Origin: a virus
Taxonomy: Duplodnaviria; Heunggongvirae; Uroviricota; Caudoviricetes
Reading direction: 5' to 3' (one strand)
Length of the DNA: 64,000 nucleotides
IMG/VR virus record: IMGVR_UViG_3300047462_000211
In this document: in pieces, positions 30-24,223 of the stretch
Layout: the number at the start of each line of letters is the position of its first letter
Position numbering within the stretch: position 1 is the first letter of the stretch
Notes under the pieces: model-generated
Databases searched by the model: none
The model's input: the letters and a program-made list of their open reading frames with translations, nothing else
What the model was told of the DNA's origin: nothing
Program-made: the position numbers and the translations under genes

Positions 30-3000
30 TTATAACGGGAAATTAAGACTAATATAAGCAAGACCATTAGATGTGGTTTTTGCATAAGTTACTGTTGTAT
101 TTAATGATGCTCCTACCCCCATTAATGTTCTGTGACCAATATTGGCAGAGCAATTTAAATCCGAACCACCACTTGATGGTCCTGCTGTTGAATCACTTGT
201 CCAAGAATTATCAAATTGCGGAATAGTTGTTCCTAATGTTGTTTCTTGTTGCCCTAATAACATTCCAAGTTGCAAAGAATTAGATGAAGTTGAAGTGCTT
301 CCACTTCCAACATTTATAGACCCGCCATTTGGTGTTACATCGCCTTGATAGCAAACTTGGTCAAATGTAAATGTTGATGATAAGAAGTTAAGTTCATATA
401 ATCCAACAATGGCTCCGTCATTGTTTGCTGATAACGGAACATATGGACCTGTGGTATCACCAGAAACAACTTGTCGATAAAATATTCCTATGTAATCTTC
501 AGAATAAGATGTTTCTGCATTTAATTGATTCCAGCCAGTATTTGCGCCCAAGTTTATCCAAGAAGCACACAAAGCCAAAAGATAATTTCCTGGTATTGGT
601 ATATTTGGTAATGTGGCTGTTGAATCTGATGGTGATATATCAAGTGCGTATTGTATAATAGAAACATTTGGTACTGAATTTATAATTATTTCATAATTTG
701 TGTTTATATTCGTATTGGTAATTTGTGCCCATGCATAATATGTTCCTGCTGTTGAAATAGTAAATGTATCGGAATAAACCAAATTAGATGAAGATGTTGA
801 AGTATATGTTGGCGGAATAGTTGAAGATGTTGAAATCCCCATTTGCACATTTGTTACTGCGGCAGGCGTAGTGGTTGCTGTTATTGTAAATGGAACATTA
901 AGGTTAAAAATATTGTTTGTATTTGTTATAGAAATTGATGTAGGTGTTGCAGTTGAGGTAAACGGATTAAATATACAATATCCTATATTTTGATTTAAAG
1001 ATATACAATCTAACCAATAAGATAAGTACCATGTTCCTGTATATGGTGGCGGCGAAATACTTGCTGCTGTTTGTGCAATAATATAACCTTGCGAAGTTAA
1101 ATTATTACAATTTAAAAGAAAACTGTATAAACTACTAGAAGTATTGCTTGTTGCGCATAAAAATACTGTTGAATTGTCTATAACTGGTTCTAATGGTGTG
1201 CCTGTAGAATATGGATTATTTGTCCAGTAAACATTTAATAATAAATTGCTTTGTGTTATATTATAATTCGTAATTTGTGTTGATGTTGGACAAAAATAAA
1301 TAGTGCCAACGCCCGCTGGATAAGGCGGTGTAAAATTTATTCCAACAAGATTACCAGTGCCACCAGCAACAACATTTTGTTCTATGGGATAAGGATTTGT
1401 AACTATACCAGATTGATTAGTAATTGAAACAATTGGTAAATTATTTTGGTCATATTCAGATATTGTTATTTGTGTTGTTGATGCCAAAAAGTTAGATGGA
1501 TTTGATGTTTGCCAAACAACAAAATAATATGTACCTGGAACTGTGGGAGTAATAAAAACATTTGTTTGATTTTGGCTATTTTCTGGCGTTGCAAATATTA
1601 CTTGTGAAGATGAAAGAATTCCTGTTAAATCTGGTGTTGTGGAGAATTCCACTGATAAATCATTAAGTGGTGCAACGTAAGATGAAACACTATATAATTG
1701 ACATAAGTTTATTATATTTCTATTCAATGTGGATTGATTAAATGGATTATTATAAGATATATTTTCATAAGAAATATAGAAAACATTTCCTATAATTTCA
1801 GTTTGTACAAAAGCTGAAATATAACTTCCTGTGTTATAAAGTACGGTATAATCATATGCAATTATATAAGCTACGCCCGTTTCTGTTGCAAAAAAATTCA
1901 CAGCACTTGCGGTCCAATTTCCTAATGTTCCTGAATCTTGTAAACCTTCTGCTAGTAATTGATTAAAATTTGTTGGGTCATTAGAAGATGATACAGTAAC
2001 TAAAATTTGGTCATTTACGTTTGCTGTAGTTCCAGAAACCGAAATATTTGCACCTATTGTTCCTATAATTAATGTTGGATACGATGTTATAGTTATTAAT
2101 GGTTCTGTAATAACAATTTCGGTATTTGCAGTATATGTGCTATTGGAAATTTCTGCCCAAACATAATAAGTTCCAGATGTAGAAATAGATAAATTGCTTG
2201 AATAACTACCATTTATAAAATTTGGTACGAGAGTGTTATTAATAAAAGATGGAAGCATTGTAGATGATTCTGAATATCCAATAAGCACATTTGAGTTTGT
2301 TGGATAAACTGTTCCAAAAACAGAAAAATTTGTTGATTGTTGAATGCTATTAGTGTTTGTTGATATCGAAATATAAGGATTAATGATGTTTTCTTGATAT
2401 AAAGCAGACCCTTTTAATGTTATTGATATACCATAAATGCTTGAATCAGATAATGATACAGAAAAAATTAAAATATCATTTGGATGTATTGTCGTATCAA
2501 GATTTACAAAACTACCAGTAGTTTCTCCTGCTGCAAAAACCAATGAACCAAAAAATGTTCCATTTATTTTCATTGCTATGATAACTTCTGATGATGGAGC
2601 ATTTAGACATGTTGCTACACCAAAATTATTTTCTTGGAAAAAAATGGTATCTGAAAACGGAATAATAGCCAATGTTTGATTTACTGAAATATTTTGAAAA
2701 TATTGATAATTTTCATAATTATTTTTGTATGAATTTACATTTTGTATTGCATCAAAAGAAATATTAGAAGAAAAATTTCCACCTAATGTTAATTGATTTA
2801 ATGGATAAGAAGAAACTCCAGTAACAACAGTCCAATTATTTCCATTAAAGAGAAAAATATAACAACCGTAATTGATATCAATTACTACATTTTGAGATGA
2901 ATCAATTAAAGAATTATTTTGTGTTGAAATATAAATTGGATATAAACTTGCATTACCGCTTATATCTTTTACGATAAATGTTGTTCCTGATGTTGCATTT

Positions 3001-3344
3001 TGTGGTAATAATAATGAAGAAATTGACGCTATATCTACAGTAACAAACAAAGTATCTATATAGGTAATATTGTTGCCTATTATAACACCGCTTGAAGTTA
3101 TATTTTGTGTATAAAATCCATTAGATGACGATGATGATATCGCATCCCAAACATTAGAATTATATATATAAACTTCTGCTTCTGATTTGTTTATGTATAT
3201 ATCACCAGTTTTTGGTGATGGTACAATTGTTAGGTTATTTGGATTATTATTGCCTTGATGAAAGGTTATTCCGTTTTCTCCAATTTGGAAATAATTAGAG
3301 TATGTTCCATCGTTGTTTATTTTTGTTGTTGATATTTCTGTCAT
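30..3344 (-). CDS. Giant N/S/T-rich fibre-like structural protein (1104 aa) with repeated Ig-like/beta-sandwich modules
   Basis: Single long ORF. Asn/Ser/Thr-rich beta-type composition. Module signature G(T/A)YY(V/A)WA(E/Q)I occurs at least twice. N-terminus MTEISTTKIN..GTYSNYFQ.GENG is shared with the 3353..6157 paralog. Short internal opposite-strand ORFs are spurious. Confidence 0.7.
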   Translation of the reverse strand: MTEISTTKINNDGTYSNYFQIGENGITFHQGNNNPNNLTIVPSPKTGDIYINKSEAEVYIYNSNVWDAISSSSSNGFYTQNITSSGVIIGNNITYIDTLFVTVDIASISSLLLPQNATSGTTFIVKDISGNASLYPIYISTQNNSLIDSSQNVVIDINYGCYIFLFNGNNWTVVTGVSSYPLNQLTLGGNFSSNISFDAIQNVNSYKNNYENYQYFQNISVNQTLAIIPFSDTIFFQENNFGVATCLNAPSSEVIIAMKINGTFFGSLVFAAGETTGSFVNLDTTIHPNDILIFSVSLSDSSIYGISITLKGSALYQENIINPYISISTNTNSIQQSTNFSVFGTVYPTNSNVLIGYSESSTMLPSFINNTLVPNFINGSYSSNLSISTSGTYYVWAEISNSTYTANTEIVITEPLITITSYPTLIIGTIGANISVSGTTANVNDQILVTVSSSNDPTNFNQLLAEGLQDSGTLGNWTASAVNFFATETGVAYIIAYDYTVLYNTGSYISAFVQTEIIGNVFYISYENISYNNPFNQSTLNRNIINLCQLYSVSSYVAPLNDLSVEFSTTPDLTGILSSSQVIFATPENSQNQTNVFITPTVPGTYYFVVWQTSNPSNFLASTTQITISEYDQNNLPIVSITNQSGIVTNPYPIEQNVVAGGTGNLVGINFTPPYPAGVGTIYFCPTSTQITNYNITQSNLLLNVYWTNNPYSTGTPLEPVIDNSTVFLCATSNTSSSLYSFLLNCNNLTSQGYIIAQTAASISPPPYTGTWYLSYWLDCISLNQNIGYCIFNPFTSTATPTSISITNTNNIFNLNVPFTITATTTPAAVTNVQMGISTSSTIPPTYTSTSSSNLVYSDTFTISTAGTYYAWAQITNTNINTNYEIIINSVPNVSIIQYALDISPSDSTATLPNIPIPGNYLLALCASWINLGANTGWNQLNAETSYSEDYIGIFYRQVVSGDTTGPYVPLSANNDGAIVGLYELNFLSSTFTFDQVCYQGDVTPNGGSINVGSGSTSTSSNSLQLGMLLGQQETTLGTTIPQFDNSWTSDSTAGPSSGGSDLNCSANIGHRTLMGVGASLNTTVTYAKTTSNGLAYISLNFPL

Positions 3345-3358: not shown

Positions 3359-6157
3359 GAATGAAATTGGGTCAAGAACAAACGTATTTCCCAAACTATC
3401 AGTTATTGTTGTTGATATTTGACATGGATTTTCTGCATAATTACCTATGCCACCGTTTATTATATAAACCAAAGAATTATTATTATAAACAAAATCAAAC
3501 GTATCAACGTAAGTAATAAAATTATTTAATGTTCCAGAAGTTCCCGATGAATCATAAGTTTGTCCATTAAGAGCCGTTAGATTGTTTGTTACGCAACTGG
3601 CATATGCAGAAAAATTTGTAGGAACGTTATTATAAAACACACAAAAAGTATATGGACTTAATTCAGCGGCATTATCTAAATAGGCATAAGTTGTTGTTGT
3701 ATTACCATTAAAATTAGAATTTGATGCACAATATTGTGTAGTTCCATACACAGAAAATACAGATGATGAACTGTTTTGATCTAATATATATGCAGTAATA
3801 TTTGAGGGAACGGAAGAAAACCCCCATAAAGGAACACCAATTGGTCCGCGAGTATTTGGTGTTGTTGTAACATTTGTTGTTTCAATAGATGAAGAAACTA
3901 TATAATTGTTTGGGTAATTGCTGTATCTGACTATAGCGGAAATATTTTGACCATTAGAAAACCCAGTCGTTGGAATATAGTAGCCTAGCTTTACGTTATT
4001 TCCATAAGTTACTGTGTCTGAAACAGTCATCCAATTTGAAACACCGCTTGGCAAACCGTTATTTGACAATCCAATTTCTAATGGTTGGTTTGTGGTTCCT
4101 GTTCCAGAACTTGTTGTAACTACGTTTATTAATTTTGCATAGTTTATCGCTGGTGTTGGTGAATCGATTGAAACTAAAGTAGGTAATCCAGCTTCTTCAA
4201 TAAATGTGATTTCTCCAAGAATAGAAATGTTTCCAAATGTGTCTGTAAAAGTGGTATTTGATAATTCACCATAATTGTAAGAATTTGTTGGTGGCGGACC
4301 ATTTTGTATTCCAGTGAATGTATATTGAATATAATTTCCTTCTTGAACACTATAGTTAACATTAAAATTTTGTGCAGAAAAATTAACTACATATGTACCA
4401 TCATTACCATTTGAATTTGTTATAACTGTATTAGATGTAAATGTTTCTGTTGAAAGCCCTGTAATATATTGTGGAGTTGAGAAATTACCCCCATATGCAT
4501 TACTATATGCATATTGAGATGTTCCACATAATTGAGTTAAATATAATGGAATTTGGTTTTGAGTAAATTGTAATAAAGATGTTCCTACTGGGCTTTGGTA
4601 AGTATCATCTGGTATTGTTGTCGTAACAACAACATTTGCAGAAACTCCATAATTAGTTGGATGATTTTTGTATCTTACAACTGTACAAATATTTTCTCCA
4701 ACCGAAAAATTATTTGGTGGAATTATAAACGGTTGAACAGTAACATCATACCAAGTGACAACACCAGATGGTAAATTATTGTTAGATATTCCAGCTTCAA
4801 ATTGTTCTGTAGTGGTTCCATTTAAAGTAAAAACACTTTCTGATGCATATCCATAGCTTCCTAATCCCGCAATAGGAGGATTTATAGAAACAAAACTTGG
4901 TAAAATTACATTTGGTATTACTTCTAAAATCGTATAATTATTTGTTCCATACATTTCTGCCCAAACAAAATATGTTCCAAGCACATTTGGAAATGTTAAA
5001 GTTCCGTTCCAAAAACCATTAGAATTTGGTGTAATTAAAACAGGATTTTCTGGTGGAATTGTATTTGACATTGAATATCCAAAATTAATATTTTTATTAT
5101 TCGGATAAACATTTCCTTCAAAAACAAATGGAGTTTCTGCAATAATTGGTTCTAAAGTATTTACTATTTTTATATAAGGTTCAATAGTATTTGTTATTGG
5201 TGTTGTATAACCACATAATGTAAAAAATATATTTGAAATTGTTGAATCGCTTAAAGAAACGGTAAAGGTTAAATTATCTCCAGGAATTAAATTTATGATA
5301 TTATTCGAAGAAAATACGCCAAAGGTAGATGAATAAAAACAAAGACTTCCAACAAATGTTCCATTTTGTGTAATGTTTATTGTAACATTATTGCTTGGTG
5401 CTGTTATACAATGTGCAATACTTCCTGTAAAATTAATTGGAATATAAACATAATCTTTGATTGTAATAATAGAAATAATTTGATTAGTTGATATTGTTGA
5501 AATTAATGGACTGTTGTATTCAAAAGAATTTATTGTTGATAATTCAGTTGACGCTCCTTGTGGGGTATATGCTGCTGAAAAATTACCACCAAGTTTTAAT
5601 TGGTTTAAAGGATAAGATGAAATTGCAGAAATAATATTCCATGAATTATTATAAAATAAAAAAGTATAACTTCCATAATTTATATCAATATTTATTGCTG
5701 ATTGATTATCTATAAGTATTCCATTTTGGGAATTTATAGTTATGGGATATGTGCCCGATATTCCAAGTTCATCTTTTAGAATAATAATTGTTCCTGGTGA
5801 TGATGATGCTGGCATATATAAATTACAATCAGAATTTATATTGATAGCACAATAAAGAATTCCTCCATCAAAACTTATATCATTGCCTATTTGGAAATTG
5901 TTTTGTGTAATATTTTGATAAAAAAATAAATTTGAATTAGATGAAGATTGCCCAATAGGAGACCAAGTATTATCATATATGTAAACTATTGACAAAGATG
6001 TGCACAGATACATGTCTCCGTTTTGTGGTAAAGGATTTAGAGAAGCATTATTTGGATTTGATGTTCCTTGATATATTTTAAATCCGTTTTCACCAAGTTG
6101 AAAATAATTTGAATAACTGCCGTTTGCATTTATTTTTGTTGTTGATATTTCTGTCAT
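3353..6157 (-). CDS. Giant N/S/T-rich fibre-like structural protein (934 aa), paralog of 30..3344
   Basis: Identical first 9 codons and near-identical N-terminal ~60 aa to 30..3344. GTYFVWAEM module motif. Confidence 0.7.
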   Translation of the reverse strand: MTEISTTKINANGSYSNYFQLGENGFKIYQGTSNPNNASLNPLPQNGDMYLCTSLSIVYIYDNTWSPIGQSSSNSNLFFYQNITQNNFQIGNDISFDGGILYCAININSDCNLYMPASSSPGTIIILKDELGISGTYPITINSQNGILIDNQSAINIDINYGSYTFLFYNNSWNIISAISSYPLNQLKLGGNFSAAYTPQGASTELSTINSFEYNSPLISTISTNQIISIITIKDYVYIPINFTGSIAHCITAPSNNVTINITQNGTFVGSLCFYSSTFGVFSSNNIINLIPGDNLTFTVSLSDSTISNIFFTLCGYTTPITNTIEPYIKIVNTLEPIIAETPFVFEGNVYPNNKNINFGYSMSNTIPPENPVLITPNSNGFWNGTLTFPNVLGTYFVWAEMYGTNNYTILEVIPNVILPSFVSINPPIAGLGSYGYASESVFTLNGTTTEQFEAGISNNNLPSGVVTWYDVTVQPFIIPPNNFSVGENICTVVRYKNHPTNYGVSANVVVTTTIPDDTYQSPVGTSLLQFTQNQIPLYLTQLCGTSQYAYSNAYGGNFSTPQYITGLSTETFTSNTVITNSNGNDGTYVVNFSAQNFNVNYSVQEGNYIQYTFTGIQNGPPPTNSYNYGELSNTTFTDTFGNISILGEITFIEEAGLPTLVSIDSPTPAINYAKLINVVTTSSGTGTTNQPLEIGLSNNGLPSGVSNWMTVSDTVTYGNNVKLGYYIPTTGFSNGQNISAIVRYSNYPNNYIVSSSIETTNVTTTPNTRGPIGVPLWGFSSVPSNITAYILDQNSSSSVFSVYGTTQYCASNSNFNGNTTTTYAYLDNAAELSPYTFCVFYNNVPTNFSAYASCVTNNLTALNGQTYDSSGTSGTLNNFITYVDTFDFVYNNNSLVYIINGGIGNYAENPCQISTTITDSLGNTFVLDPISFI

Positions 6158-19194: not shown

Positions 19195-20873
19195 TTTAAA
19201 CTTTTAATTACCCAATTCCAATAATCTTTAATTGTCCAAGATGATACAAGAGGAAAACTTGGAACAGAACGAACGTCATAATCAGAAACAAAACAATAAT
19301 TCTGTTCAATCATTTTAATATCATTTGAAATTTCATTATTCTTTTTCCAATAATCATACACAGATTGCAAAGCTTTATCAAATAAAATAGTATCTTTTTT
19401 TGGATAATTATTAATAATTATGTTGCAATAATATGGTCTATATGAATCTGGTTCATTCGTGCATTTATCAATTTGTTTGAAACCATAATCACTAAAAATA
19501 ATTGGTTTAGAATTTGGAACCCATTGGCTATATCCACCATGAGCAACAACCCCCATTCCATCTTTGGCATCATACATAGCTTGATGTTGATTGTTCCACC
19601 ACCATCTTATTCTCTTTAAAGCCAATAAATCTTGATTTATTGTATAGGGATTTCTTTGTTGACTGGCTCTATCTGATGATGGGGAAGGAGAAATATAATT
19701 ATTTTCTAAAAATCCAGATGTATTATCTTTGTAATACCAAGAAAAATATTCTCCACTTTCAATATTTGTTTTCAAATAATCTTGATTATATAAATTAGGA
19801 AAACCAGCCAATCCTAAATTATTCATTACGTTTGGACTTGGTGGATAACTTGTTTTTGAAGCTGCTGGAGCATTATTCCAATTATCAACATCAATACCAC
19901 CAGATGGCGTCCAATCAGATAACGGCATATAATTCTTTATTGCAATATATGAGATATTTGGATTTGAATATAATTGGTCAAGATGTGGAATTTTGGCATT
20001 TACATCATTATGATAAATGCCCATCCAATTTTTCCAATCAACAGAATATGCAATATTCGTATTTGGTAAAATGGTTTGAACCGCATCACATAAGCCATTT
20101 AAAGAGGCTACAAACGGGTAATCCCATATTGTGGCATTGGCGTCAGTTTGTCCTTTAACAGTCCAGGAAGCGCCTCTAATGGCTTCTAAGCCAGATAATC
20201 CATCACCTATGAAAAATAAATCAACGCCAGATATGGCACATAATTTTGCATAATGTAAAATCATTCTACTATAAGAAAAATCTGTTCCAGAATATAATAA
20301 TCCATCATTTGTATATGAAAACATTGAAGGGGTTGCATTCCCAACGAAATTATTGATGGCATTTGAAGCATTTTCAGATATATCAGCAGAATAAGTAATT
20401 TCAGAAGATTTCGTTTCATCTGTCATAATTAATTTTGGTGTAAATGAAACAGTAAATCCTTGAGATTTAAGATATTTTATTAATCTAAAAACTGATTTAT
20501 CAGATGGTGTTCCAGGACCAGAAATTGGAAATAAGTTAGAAGTGGATGTTAATCCAGAACATGTCCAGGATTCTTCTGACCATTTGCTATTTTGATATAC
20601 TTGGGTTTTTTTGCAATTTGATGATGGAAATACTTTCGCTTGACTTGCATCTAAATTATCACAAAACCAAGAAACTATAATATTGATATTTTTACAAGCT
20701 GGATAATTTTCTTTTAAATTATTAATGGCAATGATTAAATCGGTTGCTTTAAGAGAACCATCAGAAAAACAATTTACTATATTTCCGTTTACTCGATATG
20801 GCAAAGTATCATAGACAAATTCACCAATTGAAGGATTTAAATTTATTCCAGTAATGTAATAATTTGGTAGCAA
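19191..20873 (-). CDS. Large hypothetical protein (560 aa), possibly carbohydrate-active/TIM-barrel-like, perhaps tail-associated
   Basis: Long ORF with many W/Y/N/D residues and a segment GVDLFFIGDGLSGLEAIRGASW. The functional guess is weak. TTG start. Confidence 0.3.
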   Translation of the reverse strand: MLPNYYITGINLNPSIGEFVYDTLPYRVNGNIVNCFSDGSLKATDLIIAINNLKENYPACKNINIIVSWFCDNLDASQAKVFPSSNCKKTQVYQNSKWSEESWTCSGLTSTSNLFPISGPGTPSDKSVFRLIKYLKSQGFTVSFTPKLIMTDETKSSEITYSADISENASNAINNFVGNATPSMFSYTNDGLLYSGTDFSYSRMILHYAKLCAISGVDLFFIGDGLSGLEAIRGASWTVKGQTDANATIWDYPFVASLNGLCDAVQTILPNTNIAYSVDWKNWMGIYHNDVNAKIPHLDQLYSNPNISYIAIKNYMPLSDWTPSGGIDVDNWNNAPAASKTSYPPSPNVMNNLGLAGFPNLYNQDYLKTNIESGEYFSWYYKDNTSGFLENNYISPSPSSDRASQQRNPYTINQDLLALKRIRWWWNNQHQAMYDAKDGMGVVAHGGYSQWVPNSKPIIFSDYGFKQIDKCTNEPDSYRPYYCNIIINNYPKKDTILFDKALQSVYDYWKKNNEISNDIKMIEQNYCFVSDYDVRSVPSFPLVSSWTIKDYWNWVIKSLK

Positions 20874-21212
20874 AATAATAATCCTCTTATGAGGATTATT
20901 TATTATTTTAAATATCGAATAGCTTTTGGATTTTGTTGAAGGGGGGCTAATTGCACATCATCTGATGGATTTTCTATATATTCGATTATCATAACGCCGG
21001 TGATTTTGCATTTTCTGATGGATTTTTTATCGGCAATTTGTGCGGCTTCTGACAAGTTAATCGCGGTTAAAAATTATCCTTATAATATACAATATATAGA
21101 AAATCCATCTGAACAAGTGCAAATAGCTGCTGTTAAAAAAACCGAGTCTGAAAAATACAATAGTTTAAAAAGAGCCATGTCTTCCGCATCTTTAAAATAT
21201 ATAAATTTTTTA

Positions 21213-21990
21213 TCCTCTCATGCCGTAAAACCACGTCCTTTAGGGCGTGGGTCATTGGTATATTGTCGTTTTATGTGAAACAAATAAAAAGGATAGACCT
21301 GTTGGTGATGATGTAGTTGGTATTGACCTGGGATTAAAGGATTGGATAATCACAAGTGATGGTGAAATATTTAATTTACATCCTAATTTGTTAGAAAAAG
21401 AAGAAAAAGTAAAAAAAGAACAACGCCGTTTATCAAAAAAACAAAAAGGAAATAATAGAACTAAACAAAGAAAAAAATTACAACGTGCATACACCAAAGT
21501 AAGATATGCACGAAATGATAATGCACATAAGGCAAGTAGTTCGATAGCCAAGAATTATTCCTGTGTGGCAATAGAAGATTTAAATGTTCGAGGGATGATG
21601 AAAAATCACTGCTTGGCACGTCGAATTGCTCAAGTTAGTTGGGGTCAACTGAAATTATATTTGTCATATAAAACAAATGTCAAATTAGTTAACCGCTGGT
21701 ATCCGAGTAGCAAGACATGTAGCGAATGCGGAAATAAACAGGATATGCCTTTAAGAATTAGAACATACGAATGTATTAATTGCGGTATGATAATGGATAG
21801 AGATTTAAATGCCGCGATTAATATAAAAAATATTACCTTTGGAACGAAGGAAAATTACGCCTGTGGAGATATCAATTTCGGGGAAGATGATCATTTTCTA
21901 GATATGTGTCTATGAATCAGGAAAAATTTAAGACGGATATTGCTTGCGATATCTTTGGTCAAGAAGCCCCGTCCTTTAGGGCGGGGTAGT
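21213..21990 (+). mobile_element. Truncated IS200/IS605-family element (tnpB-only remnant) bounded by two near-identical GC-rich subterminal hairpins
   Basis: Hairpins ccacgtcc-ttta-gggcgtgg (21215-21234) and ccccgtcc-ttta-gggcgggg (21966-21985) flank a TnpB C-terminal-half ORF. Local GC content is far above the window average. Confidence 0.6.
21247..21915 (+). CDS. tnpB: TnpB (OrfB) fragment: RuvC-like nuclease split by a CxxC..CxxC zinc ribbon, lacking the N-terminal WED/REC half
   Basis: RuvC-I GIDLG, RuvC-II AIEDL, Zn ribbon CSECG...CINCG, RuvC-III DRDLNAAINI. Only 222 aa against about 400 aa for intact TnpB. Confidence 0.8.
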   Translation: MGHWYIVVLCETNKKDRPVGDDVVGIDLGLKDWIITSDGEIFNLHPNLLEKEEKVKKEQRRLSKKQKGNNRTKQRKKLQRAYTKVRYARNDNAHKASSSIAKNYSCVAIEDLNVRGMMKNHCLARRIAQVSWGQLKLYLSYKTNVKLVNRWYPSSKTCSECGNKQDMPLRIRTYECINCGMIMDRDLNAAINIKNITFGTKENYACGDINFGEDDHFLDMCL

Positions 21991-22003
21991 TCACATAAAC
22001 TCA

Positions 22004-24223
22004 TTAATAGCCACCATTATCAAAACTGTTTTGTGCTGTAAGACCAGAAAGTGTTCTTAATCTTCCAAGATAATTACCACCAACATCTTCTTCATCACCA
22101 GTAATAGGGTCGCTTACTGTTTTAGAGAGGACTTCGCTTTTGAAAGAATCTTCCTGGTTTTCATCAGGAAATATAATATCTTCTCTGCTAATTACGTCAT
22201 CATCTTCATCAACTAATTCTGGTGAATTTACATCATCATCATCTGTGATTTCAAAACCTTTTCCATGCAAATAATCAATGGTTTGTTGTAAATATTCTTC
22301 CGCAAGTTCTTCTGGATTCATTTGATTTTCATCTTCTGAAAAATATTCAATCAAAGAATCTTTTACTTCATCACGAGATACTTTATCTTCCATCCCACCA
22401 AGTGATTGCGTTCCTAAACCAATACCATAAGATGTTTTTCTGGCTCTCGAATTCCACCAAGCAATTGGGCTAAATTCCAAGTCATCATCCATTTCATCCA
22501 ATAATGCATAATCTTCAGTTACGGCTTCAACACCAGCGCTTTTAACAGCCTTGGATGCAATAGCACGTAATTTCATCAACATATCTTCATCTTTTTCTTC
22601 TGGTAATTTTTCAGCAACAGTACCCAATAAATTACTCAAAGAATCATCAGCAATATGTGGAACCAAAGCACTTAATTCATAAACCATTTTGGCAGTTTTG
22701 TTTAAGAATTTTGGAATGTCAGTAAATGAAGGTTTACCTTCTAAATTAATTACACCATGTTTGAAATTATCCCAAACGGATTTTTTTAATTTATTACCCA
22801 TAACAGAAACATAAGAATCTTCATCACCTTCATTTAAATCACGTTCTTCCATATCATTTTTTGATTCATTTAAAACTTTTTTAATATCAAAAGAATCAAT
22901 CCATTTTTGATATTCCATTATAGCTTTTGATTTAACTTTAACGCCTTCATCCAATGATACACCAGCATTTTTCAATGTTTTCATACCAACAGCCAAAAAT
23001 TGCTTTTTCAATTCTGGATTTTTAACTTCTTGGGTTTTTTCAGCAATTGCATTTACTAAATTCTGTAAAGCATCGTTTTCAATATGTGGAACAATTTTTG
23101 AAACTTTATACATCAATTCAGCAGTTTTTGAAAGAAATTGTGGTTTGTCATTAAAATCAGGCTGACCAACTAATTGCATTACACCATGTTTGAAATTTTC
23201 CCAAACTGTTTTATCAATTTTTTTACCAAATACAGAAATAAGATTTGGTTTTTCTTCTTTTTCTTTCAATTCCAATTTTTTACCTTCTTTGGTCATCGCA
23301 TCACAAGCAGCTTCAACAATTTTTCTTGAACAATGTTTGCCTTCAGACATTAATAAATCACTCATTTCATCCAAAGTTTCCTCTGGAGTTTTTCCTTTTT
23401 TCTTCTCTGATTCATTCAAAGTAACAATTGAAAATTTCTCATCATTATATGATTCTGCTAATGCCAATTTAACAAACGTTTCAAACATCTTTTTTACTTG
23501 GCTTCTGCAAGCTTCCTGAACGGTCATGAGGGCTTGTGGTTCTGCACTACCTTCGATACCAGAAATATGATTAACGGCTCCTACGAGGCTGCTATAGTCT
23601 TGTGCCATGCGATTAATCTGTTGACCAACAACATCAGCAAAATTACCACCATGATTCATATGTTGTGCCATTGCTTTAGCGGGCATTAGATTATTTGTTG
23701 GGAATGTAAATGTTTCTCCATTACCATCTTCTAGAATAATGCTTTCAATGCATTTTGCGCGTTCTTTTGGATTATCTGTTTTTTTGGAATGCTTAACTGT
23801 CATTTTCGCATTTTCTAATTTTAAGTATGATGTACTCATTGTGCCGTACATACCTTCAAAAATATTCATCTCATTTCCTTTTTTTCTTGTTTCTTGAAGA
23901 TTTGAAAAATCTTTTGGTGAAATCTCTTTTCCATATTCTCTTGTATGGAATAATAATTTATATTTAGAACTTGTTGTTCTTAATGTTTTGATTAAATTTA
24001 ATAAATCACCAATTGGTGATTTATTACCCTTGTATAATTTAACACAAGAATTTTCTTCATCCTCACTCAAAGATACTAATAAATTTTCTTTCTTAACAAA
24101 AAATCTACGAGCGTCTCCTGGGTCATCAGTGCGATTACCATCAATGTCATACATGACTTGAATGTAGCCACATGATTTTAATATCTCAAAAATCTCTTTG
24201 GCAGGAGCACTAAAATCTATCAA
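22004..24223 (-). CDS. Acidic 739-aa protein with internal tandem duplication of a ~110-aa domain
   Basis: Two copies of ..G(K/N)K(I/L)(D/K)K(T/S)VW(E/D)NFKHGV..L.G.P.F.D.P.FL.KTA..(M/V)Y..S..VPHI..D.L.NL.... D/E/K-rich. Confidence 0.55.
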   Translation of the reverse strand: MIDFSAPAKEIFEILKSCGYIQVMYDIDGNRTDDPGDARRFFVKKENLLVSLSEDEENSCVKLYKGNKSPIGDLLNLIKTLRTTSSKYKLLFHTREYGKEISPKDFSNLQETRKKGNEMNIFEGMYGTMSTSYLKLENAKMTVKHSKKTDNPKERAKCIESIILEDGNGETFTFPTNNLMPAKAMAQHMNHGGNFADVVGQQINRMAQDYSSLVGAVNHISGIEGSAEPQALMTVQEACRSQVKKMFETFVKLALAESYNDEKFSIVTLNESEKKKGKTPEETLDEMSDLLMSEGKHCSRKIVEAACDAMTKEGKKLELKEKEEKPNLISVFGKKIDKTVWENFKHGVMQLVGQPDFNDKPQFLSKTAELMYKVSKIVPHIENDALQNLVNAIAEKTQEVKNPELKKQFLAVGMKTLKNAGVSLDEGVKVKSKAIMEYQKWIDSFDIKKVLNESKNDMEERDLNEGDEDSYVSVMGNKLKKSVWDNFKHGVINLEGKPSFTDIPKFLNKTAKMVYELSALVPHIADDSLSNLLGTVAEKLPEEKDEDMLMKLRAIASKAVKSAGVEAVTEDYALLDEMDDDLEFSPIAWWNSRARKTSYGIGLGTQSLGGMEDKVSRDEVKDSLIEYFSEDENQMNPEELAEEYLQQTIDYLHGKGFEITDDDDVNSPELVDEDDDVISREDIIFPDENQEDSFKSEVLSKTVSDPITGDEEDVGGNYLGRLRTLSGLTAQNSFDNGGY

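Follow-up and report, generated by a model that had tools for sequence, protein, structure and literature searches.

An internally deleted, very probably decaying tnpB-only IS200/IS605 element in a tailed phage genome

Truncated tnpB and its flanking hairpins

The stretch of phage DNA analysed here (64,000 nucleotides in full, referred to as the window) carries a truncated tnpB open reading frame (ORF) of 222 amino acids (aa) with a GTG start at 21247-21915 on the plus strand, identified from the ORF list, profile matches and alignment to full-length relatives. A search against TnpB profiles, as suggested in the initial annotation, returned Pfam OrfB_IS605 (E 4.6e-23, profile positions 10-119 of 120), the Pfam Cas12f1-like_TNB zinc ribbon (E 3.1e-18) and the PHROG 506 ‘transposase’ family (profile positions 163-364 of 403, with the N-terminal ~160 positions missing). 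As the Pfam and PHROG matches cover just the C-terminal 60% of TnpB profiles, they were counted in favour of a TnpB element deleted at its 5′ end.

All of the RuvC and zinc motifs of TnpB/Cas12 that had been read from the sequence were located in the 222-aa ORF, namely GIDLG (nt 21319-21333), AIEDL (nt 21568-21582), the two CxxC pairs CSEC (nt 21718-21729) and CINC (nt 21772-21783), and DRDLNAAINI (nt 21796-21825), each on the plus strand. The protein is made up of the last WED strand, the RuvC domain with its three catalytic residues (D27, E110, D186) and the TNB zinc ribbon with both CxxC pairs, with all of REC and most of WED missing. It had been described as half-size and devoid of the whole WED/REC half, which is accurate for REC and most of WED, but the last WED strand is kept and the loss is 39% (~158 of ~409 residues), leaving 60% of tnpB. 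The complete N-terminal WED/REC lobe (HTH_OrfB_IS605) required of a TnpB is not there, the alignment beginning at residue 159 of 409, and a search across the 64-kb window found the missing part nowhere else. An ORF at 21000-21278, previously considered a displaced upstream fragment of the same gene, gave an E value of only 0.82 in BLASTP against full-length TnpB and is not related to it.

The C-terminal peptide of the family (SRYVSMNQEKFK...AG*) is encoded at 21897-21989 on the plus strand, in a frame other than that of the ORF. The shift is due to a 4-nt length difference in a variable stem of the putative omega-RNA (family peptide SRYVSMKQEKF...). A reading of the frameshift as a second lesion was dropped, the region corresponding to the disordered CTD that is dispensable in ISDra2 TnpB (PMC10097598).

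Two related GC-rich hairpins flank the ORF, as first noted from the sequence. Both are subterminal imperfect palindromes on the plus strand, the left at 21231-21250 (CCACGTCC-TTTA-GGGCGTGG) and the right at 21967-21986 (CCCCGTCC-TTTA-GGGCGGGG), and they are the sole matches to this structure in the 64 kb at up to three mismatches (0 in 100 shuffles). The two differ at two positions, which form one compensatory pair (A-T to C-G), and a T.G mismatch occupies an identical stem position in each, owing to which the top strand folds better than the bottom strand. Base composition of the element resembles that of the surroundings (GC 0.29-0.38), so the TnpB family has long been resident in AT-rich genomes.

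Upstream, in the gap between a tail-protein gene and the tnpB locus (20903-21278), a motif encoding YI(E/K)NPSxxVQ(L/I)A, which we take to be DUF4116-like, occurs three times, twice on the minus and once on the plus strand. The motif forms a 51-nt inverted repeat, 78% complementary (arms 20932-20982 and 21091-21141), with direct copies at 20956-20977 and 21009-21030, and is carried by the small ORFs 21000-21278 (plus strand) and 20903-21055 (minus strand), the former matching PHROGs 5925 and 17056 (E ~5e-6). The gap looks like what is left of a repeat-protein gene, with part of it inverted. A terminator-like hairpin (20877-20900), a 10-bp palindrome flanked by T-runs on either strand, stands shortly before the start of the 560-aa GTA_TIM-barrel tail-protein gene. 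Furthermore, a perfect sigma-70 consensus (TTGACA-18-TATAAT, 12/12) runs antisense within the truncated tnpB at 21683..21654 on the minus strand, toward the tail-protein gene; it is not conserved in the full-length relative on contig L001, and could be a chance occurrence in AT-rich DNA or an outward promoter.

Full-length relatives and the ends of the family

A protein search identified three full-length relatives (P0003, P0004 and P0002) with 70-78% identity to the window protein. These sit in other phage contigs, P0003 on L001, which carries a T4-type portal gene, and P0004 on L002. Read from its true ATG, P0003 is 409 aa long and the window protein aligns to residues 159-382. The L001 hairpin, CCCACGGGT-CTTTA-GCCCGTGGG, is present twice, at the left end (LE, 4463-4485), 60 bp upstream of the tnpB ATG, and at the right end (RE, 5748-5770), where it is followed by TAGTTCAC. 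A metagenome scan with the conserved 3′ core added two further close relatives (L084 and L087) and a more distant group. A search of viral contigs with the TnpB alignment returned only relatives of at most 46% identity, which were of no help in placing the ends. When six right ends were aligned, identity was high as far as TAGTYCAC and the sequence beyond was unrelated. Across the relatives, nine different hairpin sequences were found, with the stem kept in all of them through compensatory changes.

The same comparison bears on the idea that the window hairpins are regulatory structures of the phage, such as terminators or RNA-stability elements, which flank a TnpB fragment by chance. GC-rich stems near gene ends in an AT-rich genome would suit such a role, but the hairpins lack following T-runs, were not called terminator-like and occur only at the two ends of the element. 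The same structures stand at LE and RE of the relatives in unrelated phage contexts, with conserved flanks (TTTAT plus 17 nt on the left, TAGTTCAC on the right), and we therefore regard a regulatory origin as extremely improbable.

The exact ends of the family were obtained from contigs L105-L108, belonging to a phage with a P22-type coat protein, which hold several copies of the family, some of them nested. In L108, a derivative of ~370 bp (here D; reverse strand, 2653-3022) interrupts the tnpB gene of another copy. When D is excised in silico, CATATTTGAGTT meets ATAAAACAAATG and the frame of the host tnpB is restored (...SYLS|YKTNVK...). On the strand of D the sequence reads TTTTAT, then CACCTTGCGCCAGAAAA and the left hairpin, and at the other end of D the right hairpin and TAGTTCAC, followed by AACTCA; the TTTAT belongs to the coding sequence of the interrupted tnpB. 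Because of this nested insertion the family plan can be stated exactly: elements insert 3′ of TT(T)AT without target duplication, start 17 nt before the left hairpin and end 8 nt past the right hairpin. Four independent left ends (the window, L001, L104 and D of L108) share TTTAT, 17 nt ending in AAAA and the hairpin, and the sequence 5′ of TTTAT is unrelated among the four insertion sites. In D, the inner stem and loop of the left hairpin are inverted relative to the usual orientation. At least four TnpB-family copies were observed within 5 kb in this phage (L105 1116-5891, L107, L108 1-3350), as a tandem pair, a nested reverse insertion and copies with internal deletions.

In the window, the target or transposon-adjacent motif (TAM) TTTAT occupies 21209-21213 (plus strand), the same as in the other insertion sites, and is flanking DNA outside the element. 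LE extends over 21214-21250, with the 17-nt linker and then the palindrome laid out as in L001, L104 and D. RE (21963-21994) consists of GAAG, the right hairpin and TAGTTCAC, and similarity to the six aligned right ends ceases past 21994. The element is thus 21214-21994, 781 bp on the plus strand. The initial annotation had recommended alignment to related elements to define the ends, and the relatives together with the nested L108 insertion do fix those of the family; the window ends 21214 and 21994 follow from this shared structure, on homology and not on a before/after comparison of this phage. On the right the element comes within 9 bp of the stop codon (22004-22006) of a convergent 739-aa gene matching the PHROG ‘virion structural protein’ family.

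Empty sites were sought and none was found for this phage, the window copy having TTTAT in place at 21209-21213. The 739-aa neighbour has no relative in the viral contigs, its closest homologues (57% and 41% identity) have diverged too far for an alignment across the insertion point, and the 560-aa tail protein has its homologues in non-syntenic loci. A Logan contig identical to this phage already has RE and is hence not an empty site.

In IS608, the cleavage sites CL and CR lie 19 nt 5′ of IPL and 10 nt 3′ of IPR, respectively; each cleavage site is read by a guide tetranucleotide located 5′ of the corresponding hairpin foot, AAAG for TTAC (PMC3201880). Tetranucleotides are found at the same positions in the window, AAAA at 21227-21230 (plus strand) at the end of the left linker, where IS608 has AAAG as GL, and GAAG in the GR position of RE. 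By analogy, AAAA would read TTAT and GAAG would read TCAC. The spacings differ, being 17 and 8 nt here against 19 and 10 nt in IS608, and so does the TAM, which is TTTAT here, TTAC in IS608 and TTGAT in ISDra2.

In other respects the family resembles the tnpB-only IS200/IS605 elements (IS1341 group, with IS608 and ISDra2 as models): TnpB has RuvC and a TNB zinc ribbon, subterminal imperfect palindromes stand at both ends on the same strand, insertion at the family level is 3′ of a short motif without target duplication, and the right end falls a few nt 3′ of its hairpin, with what is probably an omega-RNA scaffold running over the tnpB 3′ end to RE. The window element departs from the group in having lost the first 158 codons and the leader, in having no TnpA nearby and in residing in a phage genome. 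With TnpB profiles matched and the hairpins identified as LE and RE palindromes through the full-length relatives, the early reading of the locus as a decaying IS200/IS605 insertion was upheld. We conclude that 21214-21994 is very probably a single, internally deleted, non-autonomous tnpB-only (IS1341-like) element and an ordinary decaying mobile element.

The last ~150 nt of the family look like an omega-RNA-type scaffold which overlaps the 3′ end of tnpB and ends at RE, at 21836-21994 on the plus strand in the window (5′ limit approximate, from covariation in the alignment of six relatives). RNAalifold on the six sequences gave 51 pairs in this region, 16 of them with compensatory changes, and in local helices 95.9% of cells were paired, compared with 33-42% when partners were slid by 1-3 columns. 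None of 500 shuffles reached any of five pairing measures; with only six related sequences this control is weak and the slid control is more telling. Of 45 pairs, 41 are retained in the window copy, as many as in the intact L001 copy. Folding of the 3′ end, recommended at the outset, returned a covarying scaffold of this type. The segment 21916-21990 had been put forward as the omega-RNA and right-end region, which was the right region with the wrong limits, as the scaffold would start at ~21836 inside the ORF and the element ends at 21994.

TnpB elements of many bacteria and archaea also carry the core motif TACGCCTGTGG...GAAGCAGGAAAA at their 3′ ends. In L112-L150 the core, as TACGCCTGTGG-N35-65-GAANCAGGAAAA, was observed in TnpB elements of Bacillales, a Poribacteria MAG, Methanolobus and Halorientalis, including many copies in Shimazuella kribbensis (Bacillales) and five in the Poribacteria MAG, and some of these elements finish in a hairpin plus TAGTTCAC or a hairpin plus ...GTCAA. 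An exact omega-RNA core pattern had no match in the viral contigs or genome contigs, and Rfam over 20500-22500 returned nothing meaningful.

The homologous RuvC and TNB domains (Pfam Cas12f1-like_TNB) are shared with Cas12f and other miniature type V effectors, which differ from the window element in that here no CRISPR array is adjacent and transposon ends are present. No CRISPR or other repeat array was found in 20700-22300 and no CRISPR-type Rfam match in 20500-22500. The latter interval was also tested for an IStron, a group I intron fused to an IS605-type element, and no intron family was among its Rfam matches at E <= 1.

The deletion and the fate of the half-protein

Comparison with L001 places the deletion junction at 21247-21251 on the plus strand, where the LE hairpin runs, at its 3′ foot, straight into tnpB codon ~159. 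The junction reads GGT CAT TGG, corresponding to GHW of that codon region. As the L001 hairpin finishes in ...CGTGGG and its tnpB reads ...AGGTGGTCATTGG, GTGG is a microhomology at the junction. Homology in tblastn and blastn begins at window position 21250, equivalent to residue 159 of the L001 TnpB and element position 574, and ~530 bp are missing relative to L001 (approximately L001 4486-5016). The truncation point is unique to the window contig, and relatives with deletions break at other points. Their internal deletions also begin directly behind the left hairpin, which is kept: L104/L105-A lacks 414 bp and has an ORF (P0006) that runs through the hairpin, and D of L108 has lost most of tnpB.

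A sequence of events can be proposed from these features. A full-length element of ~1.33 kb would have inserted 3′ of TTTAT, 9 bp downstream of the stop of the convergent virion-protein gene, presumably as a single strand and without target duplication, as for IS200/IS605 elements. A later microhomology-mediated deletion (GTGG) would then have removed ~530 bp between the 3′ foot of the left hairpin and tnpB codon 159, and with them the leader, the start codon, REC in its entirety and WED for the most part. Left behind are both TnpA-recognition ends, the omega-RNA-type scaffold and an open RuvC+TNB frame which is most likely untranslated and non-functional.

The deletion could also have arisen in silico, through mis-assembly across two similar hairpins. 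The same phage is represented by an independent Logan contig (L101) that stops within the RE hairpin, suggesting that assemblers have trouble here. However, it is mid-tnpB and not the second hairpin that the LE hairpin is joined to, two positions distinguish the hairpins from each other, and an identical 222-aa protein, retrieved in the protein search, is on record from an 89-kb JGI contig in a cluster of four member sequences. An artefact of this kind is hardly credible.

We consider the 222-aa ORF most likely to be a young pseudogene. An in-frame TAG at 21241 bars any 5′ extension, and the GTG at 21247, within the left hairpin stem, is the only start ahead of the catalytic D27. The only Shine-Dalgarno-like purine run (AGGG) is 1 nt upstream of this GTG, and the first ATG of the frame falls beyond both D27 and E110. 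In ISDra2 TnpB, REC comprises residues 13-116 and WED residues 1-12 and 117-176; the TAM is read by these domains, which jointly with RuvC also hold the omega-RNA and heteroduplex, and single substitutions in them abolish cleavage (PMC10097598).

The initial annotation had left room for a domesticated minimal RuvC nuclease, a 222-aa RuvC+TNB protein that the phage would express and retain in a role of its own, such as that of a standalone or partner-dependent nuclease or of a dominant-negative modulator of full-length TnpB. The frame is indeed open over 222 codons in a region of ~33% GC, and its D/E/D and zinc motifs are intact. The window branch also shows no excess of non-synonymous change (dN 0.07-0.10, compared with 0.08-0.13 in intact relatives). 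This lack of excess amino-acid change fits a recent deletion and would also fit selection on a truncated protein. Pairwise dN/dS was 0.09-0.18 with saturated dS (>1), and because of this saturation, and since a short neutral period leaves no trace, the ratio is unable to separate the two.

Against domestication, the promoter-proximal region and the normal start have been lost, neither an ATG nor a credible ribosome-binding site is available, the only usable start being the GTG in the hairpin stem, and the REC and WED parts on which ISDra2 TnpB depends for TAM reading and omega-RNA/heteroduplex binding are missing. The truncation point is found in the window contig only, and both transposon ends are kept, which domestication does not require. 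Two other ‘half-size’ TnpB ORFs that were checked (P0032 and P0102) look like the 3′ halves of split genes, each directly following a short upstream ORF, which carries HTH_OrfB_IS605 in the case of P0032 and has no Pfam match in that of P0102. The suggestion of a domesticated nuclease therefore found no support, and we judge it very unlikely.

[quoted passage not shown] Compared with this description, the window protein is likewise a TnpB derivative minus part of the ancestral protein, but it keeps the catalytic residues and lacks the binding lobe, and is thus not a TldR. As a decaying remnant, it has probably been truncated only recently in evolutionary terms.

Residual mobility and circulation among phages

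Y1_Tnp, the profile of the Y1 HUH transposase TnpA, was matched by none of the 47 window ORFs of 95-230 aa; domains detected among them include Macro, ART-PolyVal (ADP-ribosyltransferase), DUF6011, N6_N4 DNA methylase and DUF4116. No TnpA was called in the related loci either, hence the element is non-autonomous. The search for additional copies proposed earlier was negative within the 64-kb window, in which no further hairpin of this type, omega-RNA core or TnpB fragment was found. For any mobility or homing that remains, both TnpA and TnpB would have to be supplied in trans. Based on the TnpB/omega-RNA mechanism (PMC10097598) and the RE boundary, the flank at 21995-22010 on the plus strand (ATAAACTCATTAATAG), which overlaps the stop of the convergent gene, would be the omega-RNA guide and homing target.

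The element may still be active as a non-autonomous passenger comparable to PATEs or MITEs, its protein dead and its intact ends and omega-RNA used in trans. Under this scenario TnpA from the host or a co-infecting element would move the copy, and a full-length TnpB of the same family would load its omega-RNA and cut empty TTTAT-ATAAACTC sites, so that homing keeps or spreads the copy; the difference from a decaying element lies in present-day activity only. Preservation of LE, RE and the omega-RNA (41 of 45 pairs) matches that of intact copies, the TnpB family is demonstrably active in phages (nested insertions, several copies per contig), and the ~370-bp derivative D sits inside another copy. 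On the other hand, the element is single-copy in 64 kb, the window contains neither TnpA nor full-length TnpB, no close copy was found in the viral or genome collections, and the kept ends may simply reflect a recent deletion. Present activity of this kind is unlikely.

The haloarchaeal PATEs are non-autonomous IS200/IS605 derivatives that keep ends and hairpins and have lost the internal coding sequence. Ends and hairpins are kept in the window element too, and the ~370-bp derivative in L108 is a member of this family; the window copy differs in having 60% of tnpB, in being single-copy in the window and in showing no sign of movement since the deletion. It is improbable that the remnant is anything but inert, whether by homing into TTTAT-ATAAACTC sites, by the RuvC+TNB half-protein acting alone (as a nuclease subunit or TnpB inhibitor), or both. 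If true, this would be the first example of a functional TnpB derivative without its binding lobe in a phage.

In three copies of the clade (window, L001 and L003) the neighbour is a convergent structural gene, with the element at its 3′ end. Since the reverse complement of the TAM (ATAAA) contains TAA, the surroundings of stop codons in convergent genes make natural targets. In L001 the element right end directly adjoins the portal TAG (5772-5782), and in L003 the TGA stop of the portal gene is supplied by the terminal TCAC of the element (968-975). The TnpB proteins of L001 and L003 are 73% identical, compared with 47% over 194 aa for the adjoining portal C-termini, which makes the element apparently younger than the phage split, though it is at the equivalent place; horizontal spread, homing or repeated targeting could account for this placement.

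Further observations were made in the related contigs. An intein interrupts the T4-type portal gene of L001 (5780-9430; Portal_T4 - Intein_splicing - Portal_T4). In P0004, AIENLN replaces AIEDLN (L002 832-846), so that the catalytic glutamate of RuvC-II is kept and the neighbouring acidic residue replaced. In another T4-like phage contig with UvsW, UvsY and PhoH (L152), a TnpB ORF follows a short ORF (2103-3196), and the two, flanked by uvsY and the genes on the UvsW side, are apparently a split gene. Remnants of TnpB seem to be common in this type of phage.

For genome annotation, 21214-21994 should be labelled a truncated IS200/IS605 (TnpB) remnant with defined ends and not a gene of phage biology. 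The locus belongs to a little-sampled TnpB clade with a TTTAT TAM, which circulates among differing phage types (among them contigs bearing a T4-type portal and others bearing a P22-type coat protein). The clade includes nested insertions and several different internal deletions, with the ends and the guide-RNA region always spared, and this natural deletion series could be used to ask which parts of the element are needed in cis. The clade also offers compact full-length TnpB/omega-RNA pairs with a known TAM for editor mining.
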